Positions 14,746 to 59,650 are shown, counted from the stretch's first letter. The stretch is 59,670 bases of DNA from Escherichia phage CAjan (KP064094); one strand, 5' to 3'. A program made the numbers and translations. The notes: generated from the letters alone by a model not told the origin.

Positions 14746-15154
14746 GTTACCGGGCTGGCAGACACGTTTATTAACCACAGTAAAGGAGTTGTCATCGACT
14801 CCTTTTTCTTGGGGTGAAAATGATTGCTGCACCTTCGCGGCTAAATGTGTTGATGCGCAATACGGCACAAATATCTACGAACAAGTTGCTGGAAAATATA
14901 GTACCGAGCTTGGAAGTAAAAAGTTCACTATTGAAAGAGTTGGAACCGCTTACCTTCCATTGTTATTGGATACTTACCTCAGCGAACGAGTTGACAAGAA
15001 CTATGCGCAAAGAGGCGATGTGGTTACATTTGAGGGAGCATTGGGCTTAACTGCTGGCATATTATGGACTGGATATGTATGGGCTATGGGTCCGAACGGT
15101 GTGGAAACATTCCCGCTTAATAAGATCAAAATTACGGATATTTGGAGGGTCTAA
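14720..15154 (+). CDS. tail tip assembly protein (hypothetical)
   Basis: about 144 aa from ATG 14720 (track ORF begins earlier); contains DCCTFAAKC Cys pair; lies in the lambda K/I position. Confidence 0.4.
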   Translation: MRQGSPMSKLPGWQTRLLTTVKELSSTPFSWGENDCCTFAAKCVDAQYGTNIYEQVAGKYSTELGSKKFTIERVGTAYLPLLLDTYLSERVDKNYAQRGDVVTFEGALGLTAGILWTGYVWAMGPNGVETFPLNKIKITDIWRV

Positions 15155-18100
15155 TGCCACCAGCAATAATTGGAGCAGCGATAGCTTTAGGTGCGTCGGC
15201 TGCTGCTGCGGCTAGTATTATTTCGGCTACTACCGCTCTCGTTATCGGTATTGCTGCAACCGCGGCAGGTGCTCTTTTGACTAAGACACCAAATATGAAC
15301 TTTGATGCTTACAAGGGGCAGCAAGAGCGTAAACAGGTTCTGCGTGCAGCTACAGCGTCACGTTCTGTTGTATATGGCACGACTGTAGCGTCCGGACTAT
15401 TAGCATTTGCGGAGGAAGAAGCTGGAGATCAAGATGAAGGTGAATGGATGCATCTTGTTGTCGTTCTTGCTAGTCATAAATTGGAAGGTATTGAAACGAT
15501 TTGGTTGGGTGATGACGGAATTGATTGGTTTGGTGAAAACGCTACTTGGGAGTTTCATAACGACCGTCAGACTGTTGACCCATTCATGTTAAAACATTGT
15601 CCTTCCTGGAAGGAGGATATGATTGGTAAGGGTATTGCGTGGCTACGTTTAAGCTTAAAGTTTGATGCTGAAAAATTCCCATCCGGTTTGCCAAACGTCA
15701 AGGTGTTGAAAAAGGGACGTAGAGTTTATGACCCACGTTCCGGTCAAACTGTCTTTAGCGATAACGCTGCTCTTGTTATTCTTGATTATTTCCGCACGTA
15801 TTTAAAGCGCAAGGACGAGAATATTAACTGGGACCAATTCAAGGAAGCTGCTAACATCTGCGACGAGTTTGTAACTAATGCGGATAACACTACGGAAAGA
15901 CGCTACCGCATTAACGGTGAGTTTGAAGTGGACGAAGCACCTGCTAAGATCCTTGATGCTATGCTTGAAGCTTGCGGCGGGGAACTAACCTATATTGGCG
16001 GTAAGCATGGTCTGTTAGTTGGTGCGTATTACGGTCCAGCCACCATGACTTTGGATGAAAGCTGCATTGCTGGGGATATCAAAATAATCCCTGAGACGTC
16101 TTATAAAGAGCGTACCAATACCATTACAGGTACATTCGTCGACCCGAAGCAAACATACGCTGAAGCAGATTTCCCTCCAGTTGTGGTTAAGGAATGGGTG
16201 GAAAAAGATGGCGGTGAAATAACGCAAGACATGGATTTCCGCTTTGTTACAAGTGAATATCAAGCTCAACGTCTTGCTAATATTATTTTACGTCGTAAGC
16301 GTGTTGGTCGAACAATTGAAGTGCCGTGTAACATGAAGGGGTATAAATTCCGCCCCGGCATGTATGTCAACGTAACCATTACAAATATCGGAATGAAAAA
16401 CGTTGAGATGCGCGTTACTAAATGGTCATTCGATCCTAAAGGTGGGATTAATCTTGTTCTTCGTCAAGACTTCCTGGAAATGTGGGACGACGCTATTGGT
16501 AAACCAATGGAGCGCCCGGATCTGGTAGACCTTCCGTCTGGTGCTATTGCTCAACCGCAAAACCTTCAGTATCAGGTATTGCAGATTAGCGATGTTGTGC
16601 AGGGTGTTTTAACGTGGAGCAATATTGGACAGGTGGCATATAACCGCGTAGCCGTGCGACAGGGAGGTACAACGGTTTGGACCGCACAAGTCCCTGGCCA
16701 AAACGTTCGCGTTACTGGGCTGCTGCGTGGCGCGTATACAGCGCATGTTCAAGCGGTAGCTTATAGCGGGGCAATATCGCCGGAAGCATATCTTCAATTT
16801 AATATTCAGGCTCCGCCACCACCAACATCTGTTGAAGTGCAACAGGGTTACTTTGCTATAAGTTTGATCCCAAAATCTGCGGATATTGCGAACGTTAGCA
16901 CACAATATGATTTCTGGACGTCCGGTGAAACAAGGTTGTCTTCCGTGTCTACAGACGTTGTTGAGCGTGAAGCAACTCGTAAAGGTATGGGCACAACCTG
17001 GACTTCGGAAGGTTTGAAGAATGACCACACTTATTACTGGTATGTGCGCACTATTAACGCTTTCGGATCTTCCGCATTTGTAGAAGTAGCTGCATTGTGC
17101 TTTACGACAGCTACAGATTTGATGCCACAAATTGATTCTGAGTTTAAGAAGACGGAGACTTACAAAGAGCTTACTACTGAAATCACAGGCGTTAAAGATG
17201 GAGTTACTCAGCTTAGCCAAACTGTGGTAGAAACTGAACAGCGTTTAAGTCAAAGCGTTAGCAATGTTCAACAAAGCGTTATCACTTTGGATGGTGTTGT
17301 TCAGGATCAGGGCGTTACCATTAACGAACAAGGACAGCTCATTGATGCACAGGGTAAGTTGATTGACACTCAAGGTAAGACTATTGAAACGGTTAGCGCG
17401 ACCGTGCAGGAGACAAGTAAAGCAGTTGTAGATCTGGAAGGTAATGTTAACGCTCAATGGGGTGCTAAAGTACAGGTAGATAGTAAAGGGCAAAAATACG
17501 TTGCTGGTATGCAGTTAGGTATGGAAGGGTCCGGTGGAGCTGTTCAGTCTTACTTCATGGTAAGCGCTAACAACTTTGCTATCTATAACCCGACAAATAG
17601 CGTAGCAGAACTAGCATTTGCTGTTAAGAACGGTCAAGTGTTCATGAAGGCTGCGTTTATTGAAAATGGTACTATTGACAGCGCTAAAATTTCAAATCAA
17701 ATTCAGTCAACAAACTACGCAAGCAATAGCGCGGGTTGGATGATTAACAAGAATGGTAGCGCTCAGTTTAACAACGTAACGATAAGAGGTACTGTATACG
17801 CTAGCAACGGATCTTTCACAGGCACAGTGAACGCAACAAGCGGTAAATTCAAGGGTACTGTGGAAGCCACCAGTTTTGTGGGTGATGTTGCGAATATGTG
17901 TGTCATTGCTGAGTCTGCAATACCAAACACACAAACTACAAGTTCAAGAACCTGGACAAAAACTTTCAAAGACTCATCTGGTTCAACATTATCTAAAGAC
18001 TTTGTGTTGCTATTAAGTTATAGTTTAACCGCATATACATCAAATCAGGCGAGTCGTATAATTGTGACTGCTAACATAGGGGGGACATCAATTACAAGGA

Positions 18101-18276
18101 GGATTGAGCGAGCTGCCAATGGACCTGCGATGGATGTAACCATACCTTTAGCAGTGAAAGGAAAGACAGCGTCGAGCGTAACAATAAGCGTTAAGGAGGA
18201 GTATACGAACGTCTATGGGAGCTACTTGCGCCCGTCTGTAATATTAATGACTCGCGGAACTGGTAGTTGGTCGTAA
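15154..18276 (+). CDS. host specificity protein, lambda J-like central tail fiber
   Basis: about 1040 aa from ATG 15154 (track start 15142 is TTG); central region resembles the lambda J fibronectin-like segment (YYWYVRTINAFGSSAFVEV, KYVAGMQLGMEGSGG...FMVSANNFAIYNP). Confidence 0.75.
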   Translation: MPPAIIGAAIALGASAAAAASIISATTALVIGIAATAAGALLTKTPNMNFDAYKGQQERKQVLRAATASRSVVYGTTVASGLLAFAEEEAGDQDEGEWMHLVVVLASHKLEGIETIWLGDDGIDWFGENATWEFHNDRQTVDPFMLKHCPSWKEDMIGKGIAWLRLSLKFDAEKFPSGLPNVKVLKKGRRVYDPRSGQTVFSDNAALVILDYFRTYLKRKDENINWDQFKEAANICDEFVTNADNTTERRYRINGEFEVDEAPAKILDAMLEACGGELTYIGGKHGLLVGAYYGPATMTLDESCIAGDIKIIPETSYKERTNTITGTFVDPKQTYAEADFPPVVVKEWVEKDGGEITQDMDFRFVTSEYQAQRLANIILRRKRVGRTIEVPCNMKGYKFRPGMYVNVTITNIGMKNVEMRVTKWSFDPKGGINLVLRQDFLEMWDDAIGKPMERPDLVDLPSGAIAQPQNLQYQVLQISDVVQGVLTWSNIGQVAYNRVAVRQGGTTVWTAQVPGQNVRVTGLLRGAYTAHVQAVAYSGAISPEAYLQFNIQAPPPPTSVEVQQGYFAISLIPKSADIANVSTQYDFWTSGETRLSSVSTDVVEREATRKGMGTTWTSEGLKNDHTYYWYVRTINAFGSSAFVEVAALCFTTATDLMPQIDSEFKKTETYKELTTEITGVKDGVTQLSQTVVETEQRLSQSVSNVQQSVITLDGVVQDQGVTINEQGQLIDAQGKLIDTQGKTIETVSATVQETSKAVVDLEGNVNAQWGAKVQVDSKGQKYVAGMQLGMEGSGGAVQSYFMVSANNFAIYNPTNSVAELAFAVKNGQVFMKAAFIENGTIDSAKISNQIQSTNYASNSAGWMINKNGSAQFNNVTIRGTVYASNGSFTGTVNATSGKFKGTVEATSFVGDVANMCVIAESAIPNTQTTSSRTWTKTFKDSSGSTLSKDFVLLLSYSLTAYTSNQASRIIVTANIGGTSITRRIERAANGPAMDVTIPLAVKGKTASSVTISVKEEYTNVYGSYLRPSVILMTRGTGSWS

Positions 18277-18283
18277 TAAATAA

Positions 18284-18311
18284 TTAACCCCTCGTTTGAG
18301 GGGTTAATTTT
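18284..18311. terminator. bidirectional intrinsic terminator between J-like gene and lipoprotein gene
   Basis: TTAACCCCTC-GTTT-GAGGGGTTAA perfect 10-bp stem, T-run downstream and A-run upstream. Confidence 0.65.
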
Positions 18312-18544
18312 CAATAATCAATCACACAGTTTGAAGGTGAGCCAATTCGTCGGTATTCGTGATCAATTTCATGGCACCATTGCCCAGTCATTGGAAGCTT
18401 TTCGGTATCATAAATTAAAGAACCGTTACCATCGCGATCCAAAGGTTTTGGAATGACGCCGGAATTAGGTTTACCAGTATTTAAACCATTACCACATGCA
18501 GTAAGGGATAAACATAATGCCAGCATAATTAGAGCGTATTTCAT
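18311..18544 (-). CDS. small lipoprotein, candidate superinfection-exclusion (receptor-blocking) protein
   Basis: 77 aa with signal peptide and lipobox (LSLTACGNG); opposite strand to flanking tail genes, with own SD (AAGGAG), promoter-like element and terminator. Confidence 0.55.
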   Translation of the reverse strand: MKYALIMLALCLSLTACGNGLNTGKPNSGVIPKPLDRDGNGSLIYDTEKLPMTGQWCHEIDHEYRRIGSPSNCVIDY

Positions 18545-18580
18545 CGGGACTCCTTTGTGTTGTTGTCAAGGTTCAATTTT

Positions 18581-18608
18581 AATATACTTGTTGTGTTGAG
18601 TAAGTCAA
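18581..18608 (-). promoter_or_regulatory. promoter candidate for lipoprotein gene
   Basis: On the minus strand TTGACT - 16 bp - TATATT, about 30 bp upstream of the lipoprotein start. Confidence 0.35.
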
Positions 18609-18626
18609 ATAAATGTGGGAGATATT

Positions 18627-21600
18627 ATGGCAACTCGTTTATATGGTACTTTGCGTGATGGACTGGGCAAACCAATTATCAACGCTACAGTCGCTCTTTT
18701 GGCAAAAGGGAATACCATTACCGTATTGACAGGCAGTGAAGCTATCTTTAAAACAGATTCGCAAGGTGCTTATAACATTACTGTTCAAACAGGCTATTAT
18801 AAGGTTATCATAGGTCCACAAGGCATTGAACCTTATAAAGCTGGGGAGATTGCTATTTATGCGGACAGTAAGGAAGGATCGCTTAATTCTTATCTAACTA
18901 GCTGGGCTCCGGAAGAATTAACTCCAGAAGTTATTGCACAAGTCAAAGAGCTTGTTGCTAACTCTGAGCAGTTTGCGCTTCAAGCAGGTAGAGCTGCGGC
19001 GGCTGCTCAATCTGATGCTACAGATGCTCGCAATAGCAAAGCTTCCGCTGCTCAATCTGCTTCGGAAGCCCTTGTGTATAAGAATGATTCTAAAACCAAT
19101 GCTGACGCTGCTAAACAAGCGCAAGCCGGGGCTTCAGGGTCTGCTAACACTGCCAGTGCAGCTTTAACCACAATTCAAGGCATTCAAAAGGATGTTACTT
19201 CATCCAAGGACCGCGCTGTAACGGCAGAAACCAATGCTAAGTCCAGCGAGACTGTGGCTACGCAAGCTAAAACCGATGCTGTTACCGCTAAAGAGCAAGC
19301 TGTAGCTGCTAAGGATAAAGCTCAACAGATTGCAGATTCTATAGACCCACAATCAATTAAAAACTCTATAGGTCTTGGTGTTGAAAGACGTTACCTTTCG
19401 GATCTAACAAAGCCTTTCTCAGATGTTGGTTTTTTCATGATCAACTCTAGTACGATTGGGTATCCTTCCGTAGCTGACCAATCCGCTATGTCCGGTTATG
19501 TAGCAAGACAGGATGGTTCACCTTCCTATACGGGTTTGTTTGTAGATCCCGGTCATGGGCACGCTTACACCATGACGCAATTCAATAATGTTGCAACATT
19601 CCGCCAATTAACGTTCTCAGCAGATGTTGATAGGATTAAACAACTATCATCAGGTACTCGCGTTTACGGTGGCCCTCAAGATGAACGTTATTTTGAAGTT
19701 CATACTGGTGCATGGGGTGTTTATAACGTAACAGAAAAGAAATGGTTGCCATTAGCTATTCAACAAGGTGGAACCGGAGCCGTTACTGCTGACGATGCAT
19801 TGAAGAACATTGGCGGGTTCAAAATGCAGAGGAGCACGATAGGTACAGCTAATCTTAATGACTTTACCGGATCCAAATGCGGTGTCTATTTTCAAAACAG
19901 TATTGCTAACGCAACAAAAGATAGGAATTATCCTATCAACTCCGCTGGTGTGTTGCTTGTTTATATGACCTTTGCCAACGGGGTGGAAAGTTGTGTACAA
20001 GAATATATCGAGTACCGATATGGGACAAAATTCATACGAACTTATGATGTTGGTAACAATACTTGGACTGAATGGAAACAGTTTGTAGTAGCTGGTCAAA
20101 ATATAACATTTGCAGGAGTAACCACACGTGGTCAGGATACCACATCCAGTTCATTTGTAAGCCAGGTTACAAATTCTTCCGGAGCTACTATCGGACAGTT
20201 TGAAGCAAGAGCCGACACGACTGGAAACGCTTCTCTTATAGTTCGGGATCTTAGCGGTTCCAACTCTAGATTTTACACATTAAATCTAAACGGGAGTTTT
20301 GACGCGCCTGAAGGTTATGCGCTAAAAACAACCTCTGACTGGAATGCATTATTGAATGTGAACGCAGCATCCTTCAAAATGGTTTCCGGTCCAACAAACT
20401 CACCAGTGGAAACCGTCAACTATGGTGGGTTCCACCTAAGCTTTAGCGGTAATTACGGCGTCCAGTTTGCTGGCAGAAATAATGATTATATGCTTCGTGG
20501 TATTGAAGCTGGTGAGTATTCCGACTGGAACAGAATTATAGTTGGCACTAAAGCAAAATATATACCTCTTGATTCCCGAGATGGTTTTATTAGCGACAAT
20601 GACGGTAACACCACATGGGCTCCTAGCAATGGTGGCGGTTTCCAAGCCAGTTATGCGGAAAACCGCATTATGCAAGGATGGGTTGATGGAGCGGGTCGTC
20701 TTTATGGCCGCTTCTTAACGTCAGATCAGGCAACAACTCCAAAAACCGATGTAGCTTGGAAGAGTTCCGCAATGTTGGAGATGGATAACAGATTCACAGG
20801 AACCAATACATTTATCGGGGATGTTGTGTGTAGTGCAGCTAACCCGTTACGATTAAGATCGGGGAACCCGACAATATCATTTGTTGAGTCCGACACAAGT
20901 GAATCTACTTATTTATTTGTGGCAGATGGCGGGAACTTTAGACTTAACAGAGATACTACTGCTGGAGCAGAATTGTTCAGCTATAGCCGCTCCCAAAACA
21001 ATTTAAAGCTGGGAGTTAGTTCATATTTCACGTTAAACACAAGATTTGATCAAGGTTGGACGTCTAAAGGTGCCGTGGATGTAACTACTACAGGTTATAG
21101 CACAGTGTCGGTTATTACGACAACTTCCACAGATGCTGTTGGTGCACGAAACCAATTTGAAGTTAACCCAAGTACCAATGAGTTTTATTTAGCTCGACGC
21201 AATAGAAGTAACCTTACTGGTCAATGGCTTATAAAATTCCCTTCCGCTGGAGGCACATTAGCCTTAAGTGGAACATCGGATATTAATTACAAAACTAACA
21301 TAGAGGATTATGATGGTCTTCACTCTGTGGAAAATATTAAAGCTATGGAGCTTGTCACTTTTGTATTCAAGGATGATGAAAAGAAACGTGTTCGTAGGGG
21401 TGTTATTGCACAGCAAATAGAGCAAATAGACCCAACTTATGTTAAGAGAACTTATGAACCTTGTGGTGAAGCAATCGTTGACGAGGATGGAGTTGTCCAA
21501 GGATATTCAGAGGAAAAAGAAAGAGTTGTATTGGACAACAATGTAATATTGTTGGATTGTTTATGTGCTATCCAAGTTTTAATAAAACAGGATGAGGAAA

Positions 21601-21710
21601 AAACACAGGAATTAGATAAACTCAAACAAGAAGTGTTAGAATTAAAAAACACTGTTAAGGAGCTTGTCAATACTATTAATAAAACAACAGACCCTTCCCA
21701 ATTACCTTAA
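18627..21710 (+). CDS. tail fiber protein with C-terminal intramolecular chaperone (S74-like) domain
   Basis: about 1027 aa from ATG 18627; Ala-rich coiled region; C-terminus has SDINYKTNIED...ELVTFVFKDDEKKRVRRGVIAQQIEQ and a terminal coiled coil, as in autoproteolytic tail-fiber chaperone domains. Confidence 0.7.
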   Translation: MATRLYGTLRDGLGKPIINATVALLAKGNTITVLTGSEAIFKTDSQGAYNITVQTGYYKVIIGPQGIEPYKAGEIAIYADSKEGSLNSYLTSWAPEELTPEVIAQVKELVANSEQFALQAGRAAAAAQSDATDARNSKASAAQSASEALVYKNDSKTNADAAKQAQAGASGSANTASAALTTIQGIQKDVTSSKDRAVTAETNAKSSETVATQAKTDAVTAKEQAVAAKDKAQQIADSIDPQSIKNSIGLGVERRYLSDLTKPFSDVGFFMINSSTIGYPSVADQSAMSGYVARQDGSPSYTGLFVDPGHGHAYTMTQFNNVATFRQLTFSADVDRIKQLSSGTRVYGGPQDERYFEVHTGAWGVYNVTEKKWLPLAIQQGGTGAVTADDALKNIGGFKMQRSTIGTANLNDFTGSKCGVYFQNSIANATKDRNYPINSAGVLLVYMTFANGVESCVQEYIEYRYGTKFIRTYDVGNNTWTEWKQFVVAGQNITFAGVTTRGQDTTSSSFVSQVTNSSGATIGQFEARADTTGNASLIVRDLSGSNSRFYTLNLNGSFDAPEGYALKTTSDWNALLNVNAASFKMVSGPTNSPVETVNYGGFHLSFSGNYGVQFAGRNNDYMLRGIEAGEYSDWNRIIVGTKAKYIPLDSRDGFISDNDGNTTWAPSNGGGFQASYAENRIMQGWVDGAGRLYGRFLTSDQATTPKTDVAWKSSAMLEMDNRFTGTNTFIGDVVCSAANPLRLRSGNPTISFVESDTSESTYLFVADGGNFRLNRDTTAGAELFSYSRSQNNLKLGVSSYFTLNTRFDQGWTSKGAVDVTTTGYSTVSVITTTSTDAVGARNQFEVNPSTNEFYLARRNRSNLTGQWLIKFPSAGGTLALSGTSDINYKTNIEDYDGLHSVENIKAMELVTFVFKDDEKKRVRRGVIAQQIEQIDPTYVKRTYEPCGEAIVDEDGVVQGYSEEKERVVLDNNVILLDCLCAIQVLIKQDEEKTQELDKLKQEVLELKNTVKELVNTINKTTDPSQLP

Positions 21711-30042: not shown

Positions 30043-30633
30043 TTATTTACAAGCTTCAAGGAACTCCCGGCGCCATTCTTTACCAATATCGCTACCATGC
30101 TCCAGTTCTGTAGCGCCCCGGAACGCTTTGGTAATAGTAGAGCTTCCGCATACCTGCTTGACGCCACGACTTTCCATGCACATATGCTTGGCGTCAATAT
30201 AAACACATACAGCTTTCGGGTTTAAATGCTCCTGAATAGCGTCTGCAATCTGGTTAGTAAGACGTTCCTGAACTTGCAGTCGACGACTAAAAGCATCCAC
30301 AACGCGAGACAGCTTACTAAGCCCAACGATCTTCCCATTGGGGACATAACCCACAACAGCACGCCCGATAATAGGAGCCATGTGATGCTCACAATGACTG
30401 TATACAGGAATATCACGGACAATGACCATTTCATCCGCACCTTCCGCACCATCTTCAAAGGTTTTAAACAATCCAGCGATATCTACATCGTAACCGCTGA
30501 ACCACGTTGCATAAGCTTTCGCTACACGCTCCGGAGTTTCCATCAACCCATCACGCAGACCTTCTTCTGCTTTTACGCCTTCAATCTGACGCAGGATAGA
30601 AATAATATTCGCTTCGAGTATTGTTTTATTCAT
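30043..30633 (-). CDS. folE: GTP cyclohydrolase I
   Basis: 196 aa with HCEHHMAPI zinc-binding active-site motif of GTP cyclohydrolase I. Confidence 0.85.
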   Translation of the reverse strand: MNKTILEANIISILRQIEGVKAEEGLRDGLMETPERVAKAYATWFSGYDVDIAGLFKTFEDGAEGADEMVIVRDIPVYSHCEHHMAPIIGRAVVGYVPNGKIVGLSKLSRVVDAFSRRLQVQERLTNQIADAIQEHLNPKAVCVYIDAKHMCMESRGVKQVCGSSTITKAFRGATELEHGSDIGKEWRREFLEACK

Positions 30634-30669
30634 GGTTTGCAGTTTCCTTGTTTGTTAATGTGGTCATAC

Positions 30670-31191
30670 TTACAGGCTATAATTTACGTGACATTTCAAA
30701 GTTTCTTCGATGGTGCATTCTACAAGTTGAACACCATGCTCGTCAAGCAGTTGCGGCCCAATTACTTCAACCATGTATGCAGCTAAGTTTTCCGCAGTTG
30801 GGTTGAACGGTAGAGCTACCAGTGAATCAACGAAATGTGAGTGCTCTTCTTCTGTAATATAACCTTCACTTTCATCCGCTAAAACATCACGAAGACCGAT
30901 AAGTAAGTGATCTTTTTCCCAATGCAGGAACTTATGATCCCAGTTATCTTCCAGCCACTGGCAAAGCGTAGTTTTAACCACACTGAAGTCGATAACACGA
31001 CCAACACTGTCCAGGCCTCCTTCTAGCGTCAGTTTACCGCACGTAATCTTTTTAACATCCGTGCGACCTTTCGGGGCAACCTTAAAGTGAAACTTATAGT
31101 TATGTCCGTGAAGATGTCGACATTTGCTTTCATGTCCTACAACACGGTGCCCAGCGCAAATTTCATGTGAACGGATCACTGTATAGCTCAT
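30670..31191 (-). CDS. queD: 6-carboxy-5,6,7,8-tetrahydropterin synthase
   Basis: 173 aa with CxxHGH-type motif (CRHLHGHNY) and second His/Glu region typical of QueD/PTPS family. Confidence 0.85.
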   Translation of the reverse strand: MSYTVIRSHEICAGHRVVGHESKCRHLHGHNYKFHFKVAPKGRTDVKKITCGKLTLEGGLDSVGRVIDFSVVKTTLCQWLEDNWDHKFLHWEKDHLLIGLRDVLADESEGYITEEEHSHFVDSLVALPFNPTAENLAAYMVEVIGPQLLDEHGVQLVECTIEETLKCHVNYSL

Positions 31192-31192
31192 T

Positions 31193-31516
31193 TTATTCTC
31201 CTAACTCTGCTTTAACCGCTGCTTCGATATCTTCAAGGGCTTTAAGTTCATGAGTATAGTAACTCATATCATCTGGTTCAGTCGACTCTTCGTGCATGGT
31301 TTCTAATGCTTGACGCCATATAGCTATGTGACCTTTAATCATACATGCAAGCGAACTATGACCTTTGTAAACTGCTTTGTCCACTTGCATCTGTGGGTTG
31401 AATTGCACAATAGCATCTTCAACAAGATCAATCAGATCATATGCTTGTTGAGGGACTGGGTTTCCAAATGCTTTATGAGCTATACCCATTCTTGCTAAAT
31501 TACTTATCCTATTCAT
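31193..31516 (-). CDS. hypothetical protein embedded in the deazaguanine cluster
   Basis: 107 aa, SD AAGGAG; no recognised motif. Confidence 0.45.
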   Translation of the reverse strand: MNRISNLARMGIAHKAFGNPVPQQAYDLIDLVEDAIVQFNPQMQVDKAVYKGHSSLACMIKGHIAIWRQALETMHEESTEPDDMSYYTHELKALEDIEAAVKAELGE

Positions 31517-32082
31517 TTCGATACTCCTTTCGATTGTTCAATTTCTAACGCACGCTGTGCGGACGCAATAATGTCTTTTAAGTCTTCTACCAGACTTTTA
31601 TGCCCGCGCTCACCGGGTTGCAATGCTTTTTTGATAAGGTGTTGCAGAGCTGGGTTCGTTGTTTCCCAGGCGGTAAGAACATCATACACATCTACAACAA
31701 TTGAAGCAACATGCCCGTCAATATCTTTACCGCGGATAAGGCGCTGGTATTTGGTCAGACGGTTATCTTCAGGATAGCTCTGGTAACGCGCTTCTGGAAC
31801 CGTCATTGCAATTTCCATCACTTCTTTAAACTTGTGCTCGGTTATTGGGTCTTTGCTGGTCATTTGTTGATTAATTGGCTCTTCAATGATGTAACGCCAA
31901 GCAGTCACATCAAATTGTGTGGTCATTGGGATTGGCGAATATGACCATATCCAACCAGCTCCGCGATGGTTTCTTAAAACGTTACCATTTCTTAGTTTCA
32001 CTTCAAAATGGTCATTCTGAAGATAGACGGGCATCCCTTTGCCGTCGTGTTTGTGCCAAATTTTATCCAGATTATCTTTCAT
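31513..32082 (-). CDS. hypothetical protein embedded in the deazaguanine cluster
   Basis: about 189 aa from ATG 32082 (track start 32121 is TTG); no recognised motif. Confidence 0.45.
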   Translation of the reverse strand: MKDNLDKIWHKHDGKGMPVYLQNDHFEVKLRNGNVLRNHRGAGWIWSYSPIPMTTQFDVTAWRYIIEEPINQQMTSKDPITEHKFKEVMEIAMTVPEARYQSYPEDNRLTKYQRLIRGKDIDGHVASIVVDVYDVLTAWETTNPALQHLIKKALQPGERGHKSLVEDLKDIIASAQRALEIEQSKGVSK

Positions 32083-32083
32083 T

Positions 32084-32563
32084 TTATGCTCTCGCTGTAC
32101 GTGAATGAACTTCGTAAACAACCCAAAGGATAGCTGATGCTGTGAACTTACTTAAGCTCATTGCTACCATCGATCCCGGATTTACAATACCAATAATACT
32201 TAAGAATACAATGGAGTCAATTGGTACTGCGACCAAAGAGCTGATAAATACTCGTTGATGGAAAGGCTTCTTGGTGACCGTGTATACCACATAGTCAGCA
32301 AACTCGCTAAGTGCAAATGACGCAACGGATGCAACTACAACCGCAGGATCCCCGAACACCCAGCTAAGAATGCAACCGACAATCATTGCAGGGATAACGC
32401 CTTTGCCAGCGTTACGCTGTGCGTAGTCACGCAGGACGAAGATAATACCTACGAAGAAAGCCATCATGGGTACTACGCCAAGCGGCGTGTTAAGCATTGG
32501 AAGGTAGGAAAAGCCCAGGTTTACGAACGTAATTGCAGCCAGGTAAGCAACGATAAATTTCAT
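32084..32563 (-). CDS. integral membrane protein, possible 7-deazaguanine precursor transporter
   Basis: 159 aa, 4-5 hydrophobic helices, SD GGAGA; location inside a queuosine-precursor cluster suggests a YhhQ/QueT-like role (inference). Confidence 0.4.
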   Translation of the reverse strand: MKFIVAYLAAITFVNLGFSYLPMLNTPLGVVPMMAFFVGIIFVLRDYAQRNAGKGVIPAMIVGCILSWVFGDPAVVVASVASFALSEFADYVVYTVTKKPFHQRVFISSLVAVPIDSIVFLSIIGIVNPGSMVAMSLSKFTASAILWVVYEVHSRTARA

Positions 32564-32683
32564 ACTTTTGTTCTCCAGTTTTAACAGCGTTATTCGCTGG
32601 TTGTTGGGTTTAAAAGCTTTAGTAGTATAGTTGGGTTACCGCACCCTAAACAATGCGCTAGCGGTGCGGTTTTCGCGGTAAGA

Positions 32684-33406
32684 TCAAACGTGTTTGCTGT
32701 AAGCGTTATCCATAAATTCAGTGTAACCCTTAGCACGGAGTTTACACGCTGGGCATTCCCCGCAACCGTATCCCCAGTCATGCAAAGTTCGACGAATGCC
32801 GTTATAGCAGGTGTGCGACTGTTCAATAACTGTGGTTAAGAAACCAACCTTGTCCGCCAGCTCAAACGTTTCAGCTTTGTTTAAACGCATAAGTGGGGTA
32901 ACAAAATGAATATCTGTTTCATATCCAACGTTTAAGGTAGCTTCAAGCAAATCAACAAACTGCTGACGGCAATCCGGATAACCGCTATAGTCCGTTTCAC
33001 ATACGCCTGTAACCACATATCGGGCTCCGACCTTCTGCGCGTAAGCGTGCGCGGTTGTCAGAAAAAGCGCATTACGATTTGGCACAAAACTTGCCGGAAG
33101 GTTATTGTGCTGTTCGTGATGCTCGTTGACATCACCTTCGTTCCCGATCAAAGCGCTATTACCAATCTGTTTCAAAGCTGGTAATTCGAAGACAACAAAC
33201 GGGACATTGTGCTCTTTACAAATTTGATTAGCACAAGCCAGCTCAATGTTATGACGTTGACCGTATGCAAAACCAATAGCGTAAACTTTATCATAGTTAT
33301 TAAGCGCAAGACCTAGACAAGTCACGCTGTCCTGACCGCCAGACAGGACCACAACGGCGGAGTTATGATTTTTTACAGGGAACACCAGTTTATCTAATTT
33401 ATTCAT
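32684..33406 (-). CDS. queC: 7-cyano-7-deazaguanine (preQ0) synthase
   Basis: 240 aa with PP-loop SGGQDS and C-terminal zinc-binding cysteines (CYNG...CGECPACKLR); no fused amidotransferase domain. Confidence 0.85.
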   Translation of the reverse strand: MNKLDKLVFPVKNHNSAVVVLSGGQDSVTCLGLALNNYDKVYAIGFAYGQRHNIELACANQICKEHNVPFVVFELPALKQIGNSALIGNEGDVNEHHEQHNNLPASFVPNRNALFLTTAHAYAQKVGARYVVTGVCETDYSGYPDCRQQFVDLLEATLNVGYETDIHFVTPLMRLNKAETFELADKVGFLTTVIEQSHTCYNGIRRTLHDWGYGCGECPACKLRAKGYTEFMDNAYSKHV

Positions 33407-33407
33407 T

Positions 33408-33596
33408 TTAGAAACCTTTAAGGCTAATATTAAGGTTAACGACTACTTGTTCAACTACATCTTCACAGGTCACCTGACGCTTGTGAATTTCAAGTTCCGA
33501 ATATATTTTCTTTGAAGCTGCGCGACATAGGGCGTCATTCAATTCGTCTTGTAGACGTTGAATCTTGTGCATAAGCACTACAGTTTCTTCATTCAT
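33408..33596 (-). CDS. hypothetical small protein
   Basis: 62 aa from ATG 33596 with SD AAGGTG. Confidence 0.35.
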   Translation of the reverse strand: MNEETVVLMHKIQRLQDELNDALCRAASKKIYSELEIHKRQVTCEDVVEQVVVNLNISLKGF

Positions 33597-33801
33597 TTTC
33601 CACACCTTTAATATAACAAGGGTTGATTGTTACATTTGACATTACAATTGGATGATTACGTGCTCCAATTGTACTAACGTGATTAATATCTAATTCTACA
33701 TGCACACCCTGCATAGTAGCATGGGCAATTGCAGAATTAAGTTTTTCTACCAGCTCAGTAATCATTTCCTGATGCTGTTTTGCTTCTTCTAAAGTGATCA
33801 T
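33589..33801 (-). CDS. hypothetical small protein
   Basis: 70 aa; TAATG-coupled to queE. Confidence 0.4.
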   Translation of the reverse strand: MITLEEAKQHQEMITELVEKLNSAIAHATMQGVHVELDINHVSTIGARNHPIVMSNVTINPCYIKGVENE

Positions 33802-34508
33802 TATTCTACCCCAATATATTTGTGAACCTGAAGCTGCAACGTGTAACCGTGTTTCATACAGCTTTGGACAACGGCTTGGATGTTACTGTGGTTAAGATCT
33901 TCATCCTGCTCGTCCATTGGCTGTAAATATATCTTACCCTTGAAACCCTTCGGAGGTCTAGCGATAAATGGCGTAGCTTGATGATCTAATGCCTGAAGCG
34001 GCAAACCATCTTCCACGTTTACACAGCACGCTTTAAGTACATATTTAAATGCATTAGCGCGGCGCAGCACAGAAGGATGAATCTTTGAGGTCTTGGGACT
34101 ACATACAATTACAGGTAACTGGGAAAAGTTCTTAGGTAAAGGCATAGACCCATTAGTTTCAATTTGCACCAAATACCCGCGCGATAACAGTTGTTCAATA
34201 AACGGGTTAATTTGCTGACGGAACGGTTCGCCCCCAGTGATAACCACAAGTGAGGTGCTATTGCCGGATTCCAGCTTACGGCTTTCGATTAAACGCATAA
34301 TATCGACAATGTGATAAAGACTACGACCAACAGTATAATCTGTATCACAGCCAGGGCATTGCAGATTACACCCAGCAAGACGCACAAATACAGCAGGTTG
34401 GCCGCAGAATGGACCTTCACCCTGAATGGTAGAGAATACCGAATGCACGTCTAAATACATATCGTTTTCTTTAGAACGGGACTCGGGAGCTTGTTGATTA
34501 ATATTCAT
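33801..34508 (-). CDS. queE: 7-carboxy-7-deazaguanine synthase (radical SAM)
   Basis: 235 aa with CNLQCPGC (CxxxCxxC radical SAM cluster motif) and QueE-like length; SD AGAGGA. Confidence 0.85.
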   Translation of the reverse strand: MNINQQAPESRSKENDMYLDVHSVFSTIQGEGPFCGQPAVFVRLAGCNLQCPGCDTDYTVGRSLYHIVDIMRLIESRKLESGNSTSLVVITGGEPFRQQINPFIEQLLSRGYLVQIETNGSMPLPKNFSQLPVIVCSPKTSKIHPSVLRRANAFKYVLKACCVNVEDGLPLQALDHQATPFIARPPKGFKGKIYLQPMDEQDEDLNHSNIQAVVQSCMKHGYTLQLQVHKYIGVE

Positions 34509-57868: not shown

Positions 57869-58129
57869 ATGACTACATTCAGTCACCTGATCCCACCTGC
57901 TTATCATAGTAAGGTAGTTGACCACGGGACGCATGTTGTAATTGGTGGCGAAATCTTTATCACAGATAACGAGGAAATCGCCATTGCAATTATTGACAGC
58001 ACTCAGCATGACTTTATGGTTATCCTGCAACACGAACCAGATAACTTCACTTTTTACTCCAGCTACGGGGTCGATAAAGGTGGAAAAAGTCTTGTTGCTT
58101 TCTACATTAACGACTGGTTTGACGGGTAA
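57869..58129 (+). CDS. hypothetical protein
   Basis: 86-aa ORF with SD GAGGG. Confidence 0.4.
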   Translation: MTTFSHLIPPAYHSKVVDHGTHVVIGGEIFITDNEEIAIAIIDSTQHDFMVILQHEPDNFTFYSSYGVDKGGKSLVAFYINDWFDG

Positions 58130-58211
58130 TCTCCTTAGATCAATTCTCCTTGCGCCGTATCAAGTTTCTCTGTTACCCTTGAGTGGTTCATGTCAAGCGG
58201 AGGAACTCGAT

Positions 58212-58649
58212 ATGGCACTTCAACCTCGTGGTATTCGTAATAACAATCCAGGCAATATTCGCTGGGGTGATAATTGGCAGGGCTTAGTTCCTGTTGATAA
58301 GCGAACCGATAAATCTTTTGCGCAATTCACGCAACCGATTTACGGCATTCGTGCACTAGCGAAAATCCTGACAAACTACACCAAACGTGAAGGCTTACCC
58401 AATGTGGGTAAGAAAAACATCGACACTGTACGTGAAATCATCGCTCGCTGGGCACCGCCTAACGAAAACGATACGGAAGCGTATATTCGCTCTGTTGCCA
58501 AAGCAATTGGTGTTCAACCTAACGATCCGATTAATGTCTTCGACAAGGCAATTATGTCAGGATTGGTGAAAGCAATCATTCGTCATGAAAATGGCATGAT
58601 GCCCTATACCGATGACGTAATTAACCGCGCTATTGCAATGGTACTTTAA
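58212..58649 (+). CDS. hypothetical protein, candidate endolysin by position
   Basis: 146 aa from ATG 58212 (SD GGAGGA); immediately upstream of holin and spanin genes; no catalytic motif recognised, function inferred from synteny only. Confidence 0.35.
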   Translation: MALQPRGIRNNNPGNIRWGDNWQGLVPVDKRTDKSFAQFTQPIYGIRALAKILTNYTKREGLPNVGKKNIDTVREIIARWAPPNENDTEAYIRSVAKAIGVQPNDPINVFDKAIMSGLVKAIIRHENGMMPYTDDVINRAIAMVL

Positions 58650-58654
58650 CTGAC

Positions 58655-58676
58655 GGGGCGTTAGCCCCTTTTATTT
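58655..58676 (+). terminator. intrinsic terminator-like hairpin between endolysin candidate and holin
   Basis: GGGGC-GTTA-GCCCC followed by TTTTATTT. Confidence 0.45.
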
Positions 58677-58685
58677 GGAGGGAAC

Positions 58686-59030
58686 ATGTTCAATTCACCC
58701 AACGAACATTGGGCAGTTCTAGCGGGGTTTGCGTTTATTTCCCTCATTGGGGGAGCTCTCGGTTATGTCATGCGTACAATAGACGCTGGTAAGAAAGTAC
58801 GGGCAAGCATTGCATTTCTTGAAGGCTTATCCGCCGCTTTCTTTGGCGTTATAATGTATGCGATCTACAGGGAGTTTAACATCAGCCTTTGGTTCGCTTT
58901 TGGCCTTGCTGGCCTATTTGCTTGGGCAGGTTCACGTGCTACGCTAAAAGCCCTAACGACGCTTATAGCTTCACGGACAGGGATCAAACTCGATTCAGGG
59001 GACTGCAAACATGAAAACGATTCTAAATAA
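58686..59030 (+). CDS. holin (class I-like, three transmembrane segments)
   Basis: 114 aa with three hydrophobic helices and charged C-terminus; directly upstream of spanin genes. Confidence 0.55.
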   Translation: MFNSPNEHWAVLAGFAFISLIGGALGYVMRTIDAGKKVRASIAFLEGLSAAFFGVIMYAIYREFNISLWFAFGLAGLFAWAGSRATLKALTTLIASRTGIKLDSGDCKHENDSK

Positions 59031-59487
59031 CTTCTTCGGTTTTATAAAAACTAAACCGCGTCTGTTTATCGAGTATTTGATGATCGGCGCGGTTGTGTTT
59101 TTATGCGGGGTGGCTGCATACTTGTGGTCACAGAACGAGCTCAGCAAAACTAATTTAAATCATGCTGAGCAAAGACTAACCGTTGTAGAACGGGACAATG
59201 CAAAGCTGGGCGAAGCTGTTGTATTTCTTGCATCCCAACGGGAGAAGGATACTGAATCCTATCGAAAATTGGCTTCAGCGATTGAAAGTGAGCAACATAA
59301 CCACAGGTTGCTTCAGGACAAATTAAAAGCACTGGAGAAAAGCAATGCCGACGTCAAAGCTTATCTTAATGAGCGTGTTCCTGATGATTTGCGCAGGCTG
59401 CTCGACGGAGATACAACCTCCACCACAGCCACAGATAGTCAAGATAAAACTTCCGGCTCATCTGTTGGTAGAATGTCGGGAAGTTGA
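59011..59487 (+). CDS. i-spanin (Rz-like)
   Basis: 158 aa; N-terminal transmembrane helix then charged coiled-coil periplasmic domain; contains an embedded out-of-frame lipoprotein gene. Confidence 0.55.
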   Translation: MKTILNNFFGFIKTKPRLFIEYLMIGAVVFLCGVAAYLWSQNELSKTNLNHAEQRLTVVERDNAKLGEAVVFLASQREKDTESYRKLASAIESEQHNHRLLQDKLKALEKSNADVKAYLNERVPDDLRRLLDGDTTSTTATDSQDKTSGSSVGRMSGS

Positions 59488-59650
59488 TAAATATCCTTTG
59501 GTTTATACAAGGGACATTATCCAACGTTTGCAGGATACAGAAACAGCTCTGACTGAATGTAAACTGAGGGTTAAGGAAATCATACGCTATGAAGCTGAAA
59601 ATGTTTCGCTTGATTTTGTAGGATCAAGCAATTATATTCAGCCTAAATAG
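59345..59650 (+). CDS. o-spanin (Rz1-like outer-membrane lipoprotein)
   Basis: 101 aa; signal peptide with lipobox-like ICAGC and Pro-rich segment (QPPPQPQ); starts inside the i-spanin gene in another frame. Confidence 0.55.
   Translation: MPTSKLILMSVFLMICAGCSTEIQPPPQPQIVKIKLPAHLLVECREVDKYPLVYTRDIIQRLQDTETALTECKLRVKEIIRYEAENVSLDFVGSSNYIQPK

Follow-up and report, generated by a model that had tools for sequence, protein, structure and literature searches.

Receptor-blocking lipoproteins determine whether a cell can be infected by more than one of the phages in a cocktail or community, and whether progeny go to waste on cell debris. So far, the mechanism has been solved for two pairs, FhuA–Llp and LptDE–Rtp45. 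The closest described relative of the lipoprotein reported here is gp116 (mEp010_116) or Lpp010, a ‘type-C lipoprotein’ of the mEpimmI phages. Cloned behind Ptac and induced with IPTG, Lpp010 excluded mEp010, mEp044, mEp554 and, unexpectedly, lambda, while mEp013 escaped exclusion; all five of these phages need LamB (PMC11893012). Lipoproteins of this kind had been anticipated by van den Berg et al. (2022, PMC9586334), who wrote that LamB phages such as Bas23 “likely do have SE lipoproteins”. As they noted, LamB lacks both a plug domain and any known allostery; how a lipoprotein could disable it was left open.

Here we report an analysis of the genome of Escherichia phage CAjan (KP064094), in which a lipoprotein that is probably of this kind is encoded next to the J-like gene. 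The window, the whole stretch of DNA that was analysed, comprises 59,670 nucleotides. Three strands of evidence were already on record: the annotation of the cassette in phage Seurat, the exclusion prediction for Bas23 (2022) and the exclusion shown for a 54%-identical homologue (2025). New here are the explicit homology link between these strands, the linkage statistics, the uncoupling of the lipoprotein from the J subtype, the boundaries of the cassette and the copy in E. coli Nissle 1917. The Seuratvirus, Nonagvirus, Dhillonvirus and Nissle 1917 copies are now tied to Lpp010, the sole family member with an experimental phenotype. The mature protein is a well-defined, highly conserved candidate of 61 residues for structural work on LamB.

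The lipoprotein gene and its product

CAjan is a virulent Seuratvirus (Queuovirinae) with a mosaic genome, 93-98% identical to Skure, SLUR75, Greed and GottfriedDienst. The 340-bp gap between its J-like gene and its lateral tail-fibre gene contains a single ORF on the minus strand (Table 1). The preliminary description had placed here a 77-aa reverse-strand lipoprotein gene, 18311-18544, with the lipobox LTAC, and had proposed signal-peptide and lipobox prediction as a check. Gene, extent and lipobox all hold, with the signal peptide at residues 1-16 and LTAC at residues 14-17. The full precursor is MKYALIMLALCLSLTACGNGLNTGKPNSGVIPKPLDRDGNGSLIYDTEKLPMTGQWCHEIDHEYRRIGSPSNCVIDY. Its N-terminal part reads MKYALIMLALCLSLTAC followed by GNG, with cleavage before Cys17. 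A short positively charged N-terminus is followed by a hydrophobic core and then by the lipobox L14-T15-A16-C17, in which Cys17 is the lipid-modified residue. The mature protein has a mass of 6.7 kDa and a pI of 5.5. It carries Gly at position +2 and two further cysteines at positions 41 and 57 (C57 and C73 of the precursor). According to the Lol sorting rule of E. coli, lipoproteins with Asp at +2 stay in the inner membrane. Since the +2 residue is Gly and not Asp, an outer-membrane location is predicted.

The ORF is a real gene under strong purifying selection. This follows from its match to the phrog_12984 profile, its homologues in 42 phage records and its dN/dS of 0.09-0.26 against six relatives, with synonymous sites near saturation. 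The product is 100% identical to bas21_0021 of GottfriedDienst (Bas21), which is annotated as ‘hypothetical protein’. At the same spot the GenBank record of Seurat carries the labels ‘putative lipoprotein’ and ‘bidirectional terminator between end of gene and end of apparent moron’. The paper on phage Greed (PMC10433841) does not mention the lipoprotein gene.

Table 1. Features of the CAjan window referred to in the text. The J start codon was adopted from the Bas21 annotation.
Feature	Coordinates	Strand	Remarks
J-like central tail fibre / tail tip gene	15154..18276	+	1040 aa; Pfam Phage_Tail_Tip, Ig_J_second; phrog_31 ‘central tail fiber J’; convergent with the lipoprotein gene
J C-terminal extension	17854..18276	+	about 140 aa from ‘GTVEA’; presumed LamB-binding domain, subtype 1
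Cassette, apparently mobile	18277..18685		nucleotide similarity to E. coli Nissle 1917 prophage, 88% identity
Hairpin	18282..18309	both	perfect 12-bp stem, 4-nt loop; bidirectional terminator-like, common to the convergent J and lipoprotein genes
Lipoprotein precursor gene	18311..18544	-	77 aa; sole ORF in the gap between J and side-fibre genes
Mature lipoprotein	18314-18496	-	61 aa from Cys17
Signal peptide	18497-18544	-	residues 1-16 of the precursor
Shine-Dalgarno AAGGAG (reverse complement)	18550..18555	-	5 nt before ATG
Sigma-70-like promoter candidate	18581..18608	-	TTGACT (18608-18603), 16 nt, TATATT (18586-18581); 10/12 consensus matches
Lateral (side) tail-fibre gene	18627..21710	+	Pfam phage_tail_N, Peptidase_S74; divergent from the lipoprotein gene
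FolE	30043-30633	-	
QueD	30670-31191	-	
QueC	32684-33406	-	
Radical-SAM (QueE-like) gene	33801-34508	-	
Endolysin	within 57942-58649		
Holin	58686-59030		
i-spanin	59011-59487		PHROG spanin match
o-spanin	59345-59650		overlaps i-spanin; signal sequence ...LMICAGC; PHROG spanin match

The lipoprotein belongs to the Lpp010 family

The phrog_12984 ‘lipoprotein’ profile matches the precursor over positions 1-77 of 77 with an E value of 7.5e-57. BLASTP aligns it with Lpp010 over the full length at 54% identity (E 3e-32). The motifs PNSGV, DTEKLP.TGQWC and NC and the Cys pair are identical in the two proteins. The mEp010 gene also occupies a convergent position after J with a hairpin in common, and its carriers are LamB-dependent. 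Judged by sequence, the CAjan protein is thus a member of the Lpp010 / phrog_12984 family. Differences are found in the first 12 or so residues after the lipidated Cys, where GNGLNTGK of CAjan stands against AVDKEAALHNL of Lpp010. In addition, mEp010 is temperate whereas CAjan is virulent, and the J receptor-binding domain paired with the lipoprotein is of another subtype in CAjan, with 27-29% identity. We infer that the CAjan protein would have the same exclusion activity as Lpp010.

Among phage genomes, tblastn located the gene in 42 records. Its carriers include Seuratviruses, the Nonagvirus 9g, the Dhillonviruses EP23, PNS1, HH3, Maverick and CS16, Enterobacter phage AS5 of the Drexlerviridae, and the temperate mEpimmI phages mEp010, mEp013, mEp044 and mEp554. 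Most of them are strictly virulent. The same arrangement of J and lipoprotein genes is also present in E. coli and Salmonella prophages, and 39 of 5426 complete E. coli genomes contain the cassette in a prophage. A large word-indexed sequence search returned 29 clusters. An exhaustive profile search of 1.84 billion representatives returned three true ones, all from the family itself, together with two repeat proteins, P0031 and P0032. By these searches the family is small and confined to the phages and prophages of enterobacteria. In an alignment of its members (22-30 sequences), the PNSGV, T-E, G-W-C and N-C columns are invariant, and the lipobox Cys, C57 and C73 are invariant or nearly so.

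Searches outside the family returned little. The lipoprotein matched no Pfam family, NCBIfam gave nothing but sub-threshold matches to signal peptides, and a sequence search of the PDB found no match at E <= 10. The two repeat proteins are giant, repeat or adhesin-like. Profile positions 34-66, the DG.G.L..DTEKLP.TGQW core, matched nine repeats in P0031 (4467 aa) and four in P0032 (704 aa), and P0032 also has a sub-threshold MORN_2 match. As family relatives both were set aside as repeat or compositional matches, which nevertheless hint that the core could be a short β-hairpin-type repeat unit. A 72-aa homologue with 57% identity is found among small genes on two E. coli contigs (P0027; L016 3293-3511 and L017 2212-2430). 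There is no J gene within these 4-5 kb contigs, and the canonical lipobox is absent (…VAIALCCTAF…). This protein may come from a decaying copy, or from one that sits in another genomic context.

The lipoprotein is linked to LamB-type J proteins

The terminal receptors listed in the BASEL S5 table allow the presence of the gene to be compared with receptor use. LamB is the terminal receptor of Bas21, Bas22, Bas23 and Bas24, all four of which carry the lipoprotein gene. LptD is that of Bas19, Bas20 and Bas25, from which the gene is absent. The content of the slot after J thus differs between LamB- and LptD-using Seuratviruses. LptD-type loci have a reverse-strand gene of 311-321 aa there. In Bas25 and Bas20 this gene is 321 aa long, and J is 115-160 aa shorter and has no C-terminal extension.

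The 321-aa genes (VogelGryff / Bas25, L004 4828-5793; FritzHoffmann / Bas20, L005 5590-6555) presumably encode the RBP. No small lipobox ORF of at least 30 aa is apparent beside them, unlike in phage Rtp, where rtp44 is accompanied by rtp45. In LptD-using Queuovirinae an exclusion lipoprotein may be absent or encoded at another locus.

An alignment of J C-termini revealed that all lipoprotein-carrying phages have an extra domain, which starts with ‘GTVEA..F[IV]GD[IV]AN’ and ends with ‘GSGS[FW]’. At all 11 loci examined, the lipoprotein gene is convergent with and directly downstream of a J that has this extension. So in the carriers the receptor-binding function appears to be fused to J, and the slot to hold the lipoprotein only. 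A recent preprint came to the same conclusion for LamB phages, namely that their receptor-binding function is fused to J. The extension of CAjan J is 99% identical to that of the LamB user Bas21. The receptor concerned is almost certainly LamB, not FhuA.

The C-terminal domain of J occurs in at least four subtypes, which are mutually 27-34% identical. The first is found in CAjan, Bas21, Seurat and EP23, the second in Bas22, 9g, mEp010 and HK97, the third in AS5 and the fourth in a Salmonella prophage. The lipoprotein is present in 30 of the 30 phage records with subtype 1 and in 11 of the 13 with subtype 2. The exception named in the latter group is HK97, a LamB phage in which J is followed by an empty gap of 207 bp.

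Conservation of the lipoprotein is independent of the subtype of J. Between CAjan and Bas22 the mature lipoproteins are 97% identical, whereas the J C-terminal domains are only 27% identical. Such a difference is expected if the partner of the lipoprotein is a host receptor and not the virion. A constant partner, the LamB of the host, would be the simplest explanation. The lambda J tip is unrelated, so that the exclusion of lambda by Lpp010 is in line with this explanation as well. The preliminary description had proposed a receptor-blocking exclusion lipoprotein beside a receptor-binding gene. As a predicted function this proposal gains support from the homology to Lpp010 and from the linkage to LamB-type J.

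A small outer-membrane lipoprotein encoded within the tail gene block might also be an o-spanin, which it resembles in type, or a component needed for tail assembly or for the virion. We regard both roles as barely credible. The gene is transcribed opposite to the tail genes. It is linked to LamB-type J yet is dispensable for J function in HK97, which argues against a structural or assembly role; the tail-factor reading was rejected because HK97 builds a functional LamB-type J tail without the gene. The o-spanin reading was rejected as well, as the lysis cassette of the genome is complete and the lipoprotein has neither a spanin match nor an adjacent i-spanin. That cassette is located at the right end of the genome, at 57942-59650 (Table 1).

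Expression signals and the shared hairpin

The gene had been credited with a strong Shine-Dalgarno sequence and a promoter-like element of its own, and both are found. The Shine-Dalgarno sequence AAGGAG, 5 nt ahead of the ATG, is kept in Seuratvirus, 9g and AS5. The putative promoter, TTGACT-16-TATATT, agrees with the consensus at 10 of 12 positions. Eight candidate sites occur in the 2-kb region against 4.5 +/- 2.3 expected, so that taken alone this site is a mere consensus match. Nevertheless, the Seuratviruses Bas21, Seurat and Bas22 have every base of it unchanged, and the Nonagvirus 9g has an almost identical site.

The convergent J and lipoprotein genes are separated by a hairpin with the sequence AATTAACCCCTC GTTT GAGGGGTTAATT. 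It begins 5 nt past the J stop codon and ends 1 nt short of the lipoprotein stop codon. A perfect bidirectional terminator of 10 bp had been described at this position. The perfect hairpin is indeed present, but its stem measures 12 bp. Folding yields a free energy of -17.6 kcal/mol for the + strand and -19.8 kcal/mol for the - strand; against shuffled sequences the z-scores are -5.4 and -5.6, respectively. The whole 59,670-nt genome contains only two perfect close inverted repeats of at least 12 nt, and the hairpin is one of them. The U-tracts on both of its sides are broken by A. A hairpin is found at the same place in all eight phages compared, and in Bas22, 9g, EP23, mEp010 and AS5 the equivalent hairpin has another stem sequence. 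Its structure is therefore kept although its sequence varies. The Seurat, mEp010 and 9g records annotate it as a terminator.

Several smaller features were noted around these signals. Compared with Seurat (KM236243), the 12-bp stems are identical and the loop (18294-18297), GTTT on the + strand in CAjan, is reverse-complemented. This difference is a micro-inversion within a perfect palindrome. Between the J and side-fibre genes, which share the + strand, lies the reverse-strand cassette (18311-18626). If a late transcript read through the hairpin, it would run antisense to the entire lipoprotein mRNA. Only 8 nt separate the -35 box of the lipoprotein promoter candidate from the Shine-Dalgarno sequence of the side-fibre gene. 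Upstream of the side-fibre gene there is only a weak promoter-like site on the + strand (18489-18518, 9/12 matches).

The cassette is exchanged between prophages and virulent phages

Comparison with E. coli prophages defines the limits of the cassette. The MS 115-1 prophage is 90% identical to CAjan over 17761-18685, a stretch that takes in the receptor-binding domain of J, the cassette and the start (60 nt) of the side-fibre gene. The similarity of the Nissle 1917 prophage, at 88% identity, is limited to 18277-18685, and the cassette there is paired with a subtype-2 J. In both comparisons similarity stops at 18685, and the first 60 or so nucleotides of the side-fibre gene form the right edge of the exchanged segment. 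The pattern indicates a mobile cassette that passes between temperate prophages and virulent phages whatever the subtype of the J receptor-binding domain.

The cassette has the features of a moron. It combines a promoter-like site, which is putative, with a hairpin, is oriented opposite to its neighbors, and is present or absent between syntenic genomes. Morons can serve the host, as does Bor of lambda, a fitness or serum-resistance lipoprotein. A host-directed function of this type, unrelated to phage exclusion, would agree with the autonomous promoter candidate and terminator, with the ‘apparent moron’ label in the Seurat record and with the prophage copies in E. coli genomes. We consider it very improbable. 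Functions that improve the fitness of a lysogen make little sense in strictly virulent phages, which are the majority of the carriers. Moreover, the gene goes together with a single class of receptor-binding domain, and its homologue Lpp010 has a demonstrated exclusion phenotype.

Proposed function and mechanism

Taken together, the data point to a function in superinfection exclusion. The CAjan gene probably encodes an exported, outer-membrane-sorted lipoprotein, lipidated at Cys17, which renders LamB, the presumed terminal receptor of the phage’s own J, unusable for phages. In the outer membrane the protein would sit on the periplasmic face and bind LamB directly. With its LamB disabled as a receptor, the infected cell would be protected from superinfection. 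Progeny would also not be wasted on the LamB of cell debris, a benefit that Llp provides for T5. The Bas23 lipoprotein, for which exclusion had been predicted, is 97% identical to the CAjan protein.

Structure prediction speaks neither for nor against such an action on LamB. AlphaFold2 gave low-confidence models with both the full and the mature-only alignment (pLDDT 54.2 and 57.7). A Foldseek search of the PDB with these models found no match at E <= 0.001 and one at E 6.2, a result that is uninformative with models of this quality, also as regards an Llp-like fold. No paper on a LamB–lipoprotein structure was found in the literature. For the Rtp45–LptDE pair, AF3 had given a wrong prediction (PMC12685063). 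Since LamB has no known allostery, the Llp mechanism is not simply transferable.

The E. coli Nissle 1917 chromosome (NZ_CP148105.1, L018) contains the whole cassette after the J gene of a lambdoid prophage, at 2214452-2214685. The mature protein encoded there (WHM01_RS10450) differs from that of CAjan by the single exchange K49N, which affects a position with hardly any variation in the family. Bury et al. (2018, PMC5987069) found Nissle 1917 to be fully resistant to lambda. The phage was still bound via LamB and inactivated, and they concluded that a factor, which they did not identify, prevents DNA entry. The cassette gene is a candidate for this factor.

These observations raise the main alternative, exclusion after adsorption. 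LamB binding would remain intact, and the block would act on the trigger of DNA ejection or on the DNA as it crosses the envelope. It would account for a strain with a near-identical copy being lambda-resistant though lambda binds its LamB (PMC5987069). It would also agree with the behavior of mEp013, a LamB user spared by Lpp010, so that LamB is evidently present and usable by some tail tips. However, the argument from Nissle 1917 requires an expressed and active copy, and K49N falls on a nearly invariant position. For a virulent phage, LamB debris that still binds progeny would be a waste, the opposite of the benefit that T5 draws from Llp. A lipoprotein in the outer membrane is better placed to act on an outer-membrane protein, and in both solved cases, Llp–FhuA and Rtp45–LptDE, RBP binding is abolished (PMC9586334, PMC12685063). 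On balance, exclusion after adsorption seems unlikely.

The same two observations bear on how a lipoprotein that disables LamB as a receptor would act. Binding of lambda to Nissle 1917 argues against a simple masking of the LamB site, if the copy is expressed and active there. Together with the escape of mEp013, it suggests that LamB is neither simply removed nor completely masked. With considerable doubt, we tentatively consider the family as a possible third class of lipoproteins that disable receptors, independent in structure from the other two. LamB, a plain trimeric diffusion porin, would then be inactivated neither by long-range allostery, as in Llp–FhuA, nor by loop displacement, as in Rtp45–LptD, but in another way. 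One option for such a class is that the invariant N-terminal PNSGVIP segment is threaded into or against the LamB barrel from the periplasm. The other is that phage binding is uncoupled from DNA ejection, which would also explain the lambda resistance of Nissle 1917.

Comparison with Llp, Cor and Rtp45

The lipoprotein had originally been likened to Llp of T5 and Cor of phi80 and N15. In format and position the likeness is clear. Llp and the Cor proteins of T1, phi80 and N15 are likewise made as precursors of 75-77 aa with a lipobox and a mature part of about 60 aa. They share with the CAjan protein one intramolecular Cys pair, the absence of Asp at +2, an own promoter (a candidate in CAjan) and a location adjoining the receptor-binding gene. 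The expected biological role is also the same. The likeness does not extend to family membership. When aligned by hhalign with T5 Llp and T1 Cor, only the signal peptide and lipobox matched. The Cys pair is at mature positions 41/57 in CAjan, compared to 11/58 in Llp and 9/57 in Cor. The receptors are of different classes, as LamB is a trimeric diffusion porin and FhuA, the target of Llp and Cor, is a TonB-dependent transporter. In addition, Llp and Cor reportedly give high-confidence predicted folds (bioRxiv 10.64898/2026.03.26.714494), unlike the CAjan lipoprotein (pLDDT 54 and 58).

Rtp45 of phage Rtp (PDB 9RPS, PMC12685063) is similar in other respects. It is also a small lipoprotein with one disulfide, encoded by a small siphophage in a reverse-strand slot downstream of J, and its target receptor, LptD, is not TonB-dependent. 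In hhalign, the comparison with Rtp45 reached a probability of 62%, a weak and unconvincing match mostly contributed by the signal peptide, and the Cys positions do not match (11/19 in Rtp45). Next to rtp45, phage Rtp has a separate RBP gene, rtp44, whereas in CAjan the receptor-binding function is assigned to the C-terminal extension of J and the slot has no RBP gene. Membership in the Llp/Cor or Rtp45 families was rejected, as no convincing similarity was found beyond the signal peptide and lipobox, the Cys layout is another and the closest relatives are LamB users. The CAjan lipoprotein is thus best described, from these alignments, as a functional analogue of Llp, Cor and Rtp45 and not as a member of their families.

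Other features of the genome

The side-fibre product is a mosaic of 1027 aa, with a conserved phage_tail_N N-terminus and a C-terminal Peptidase_S74 intramolecular-chaperone domain. Similarity of its gene to most relatives ends about 500 nt in. In Bas21, which is otherwise near-identical, the side-fibre region is annotated as several short fragments. Further downstream, the minus strand encodes the 7-deazaguanine DNA-modification genes typical of Seuratvirus (30043-34508; Table 1).
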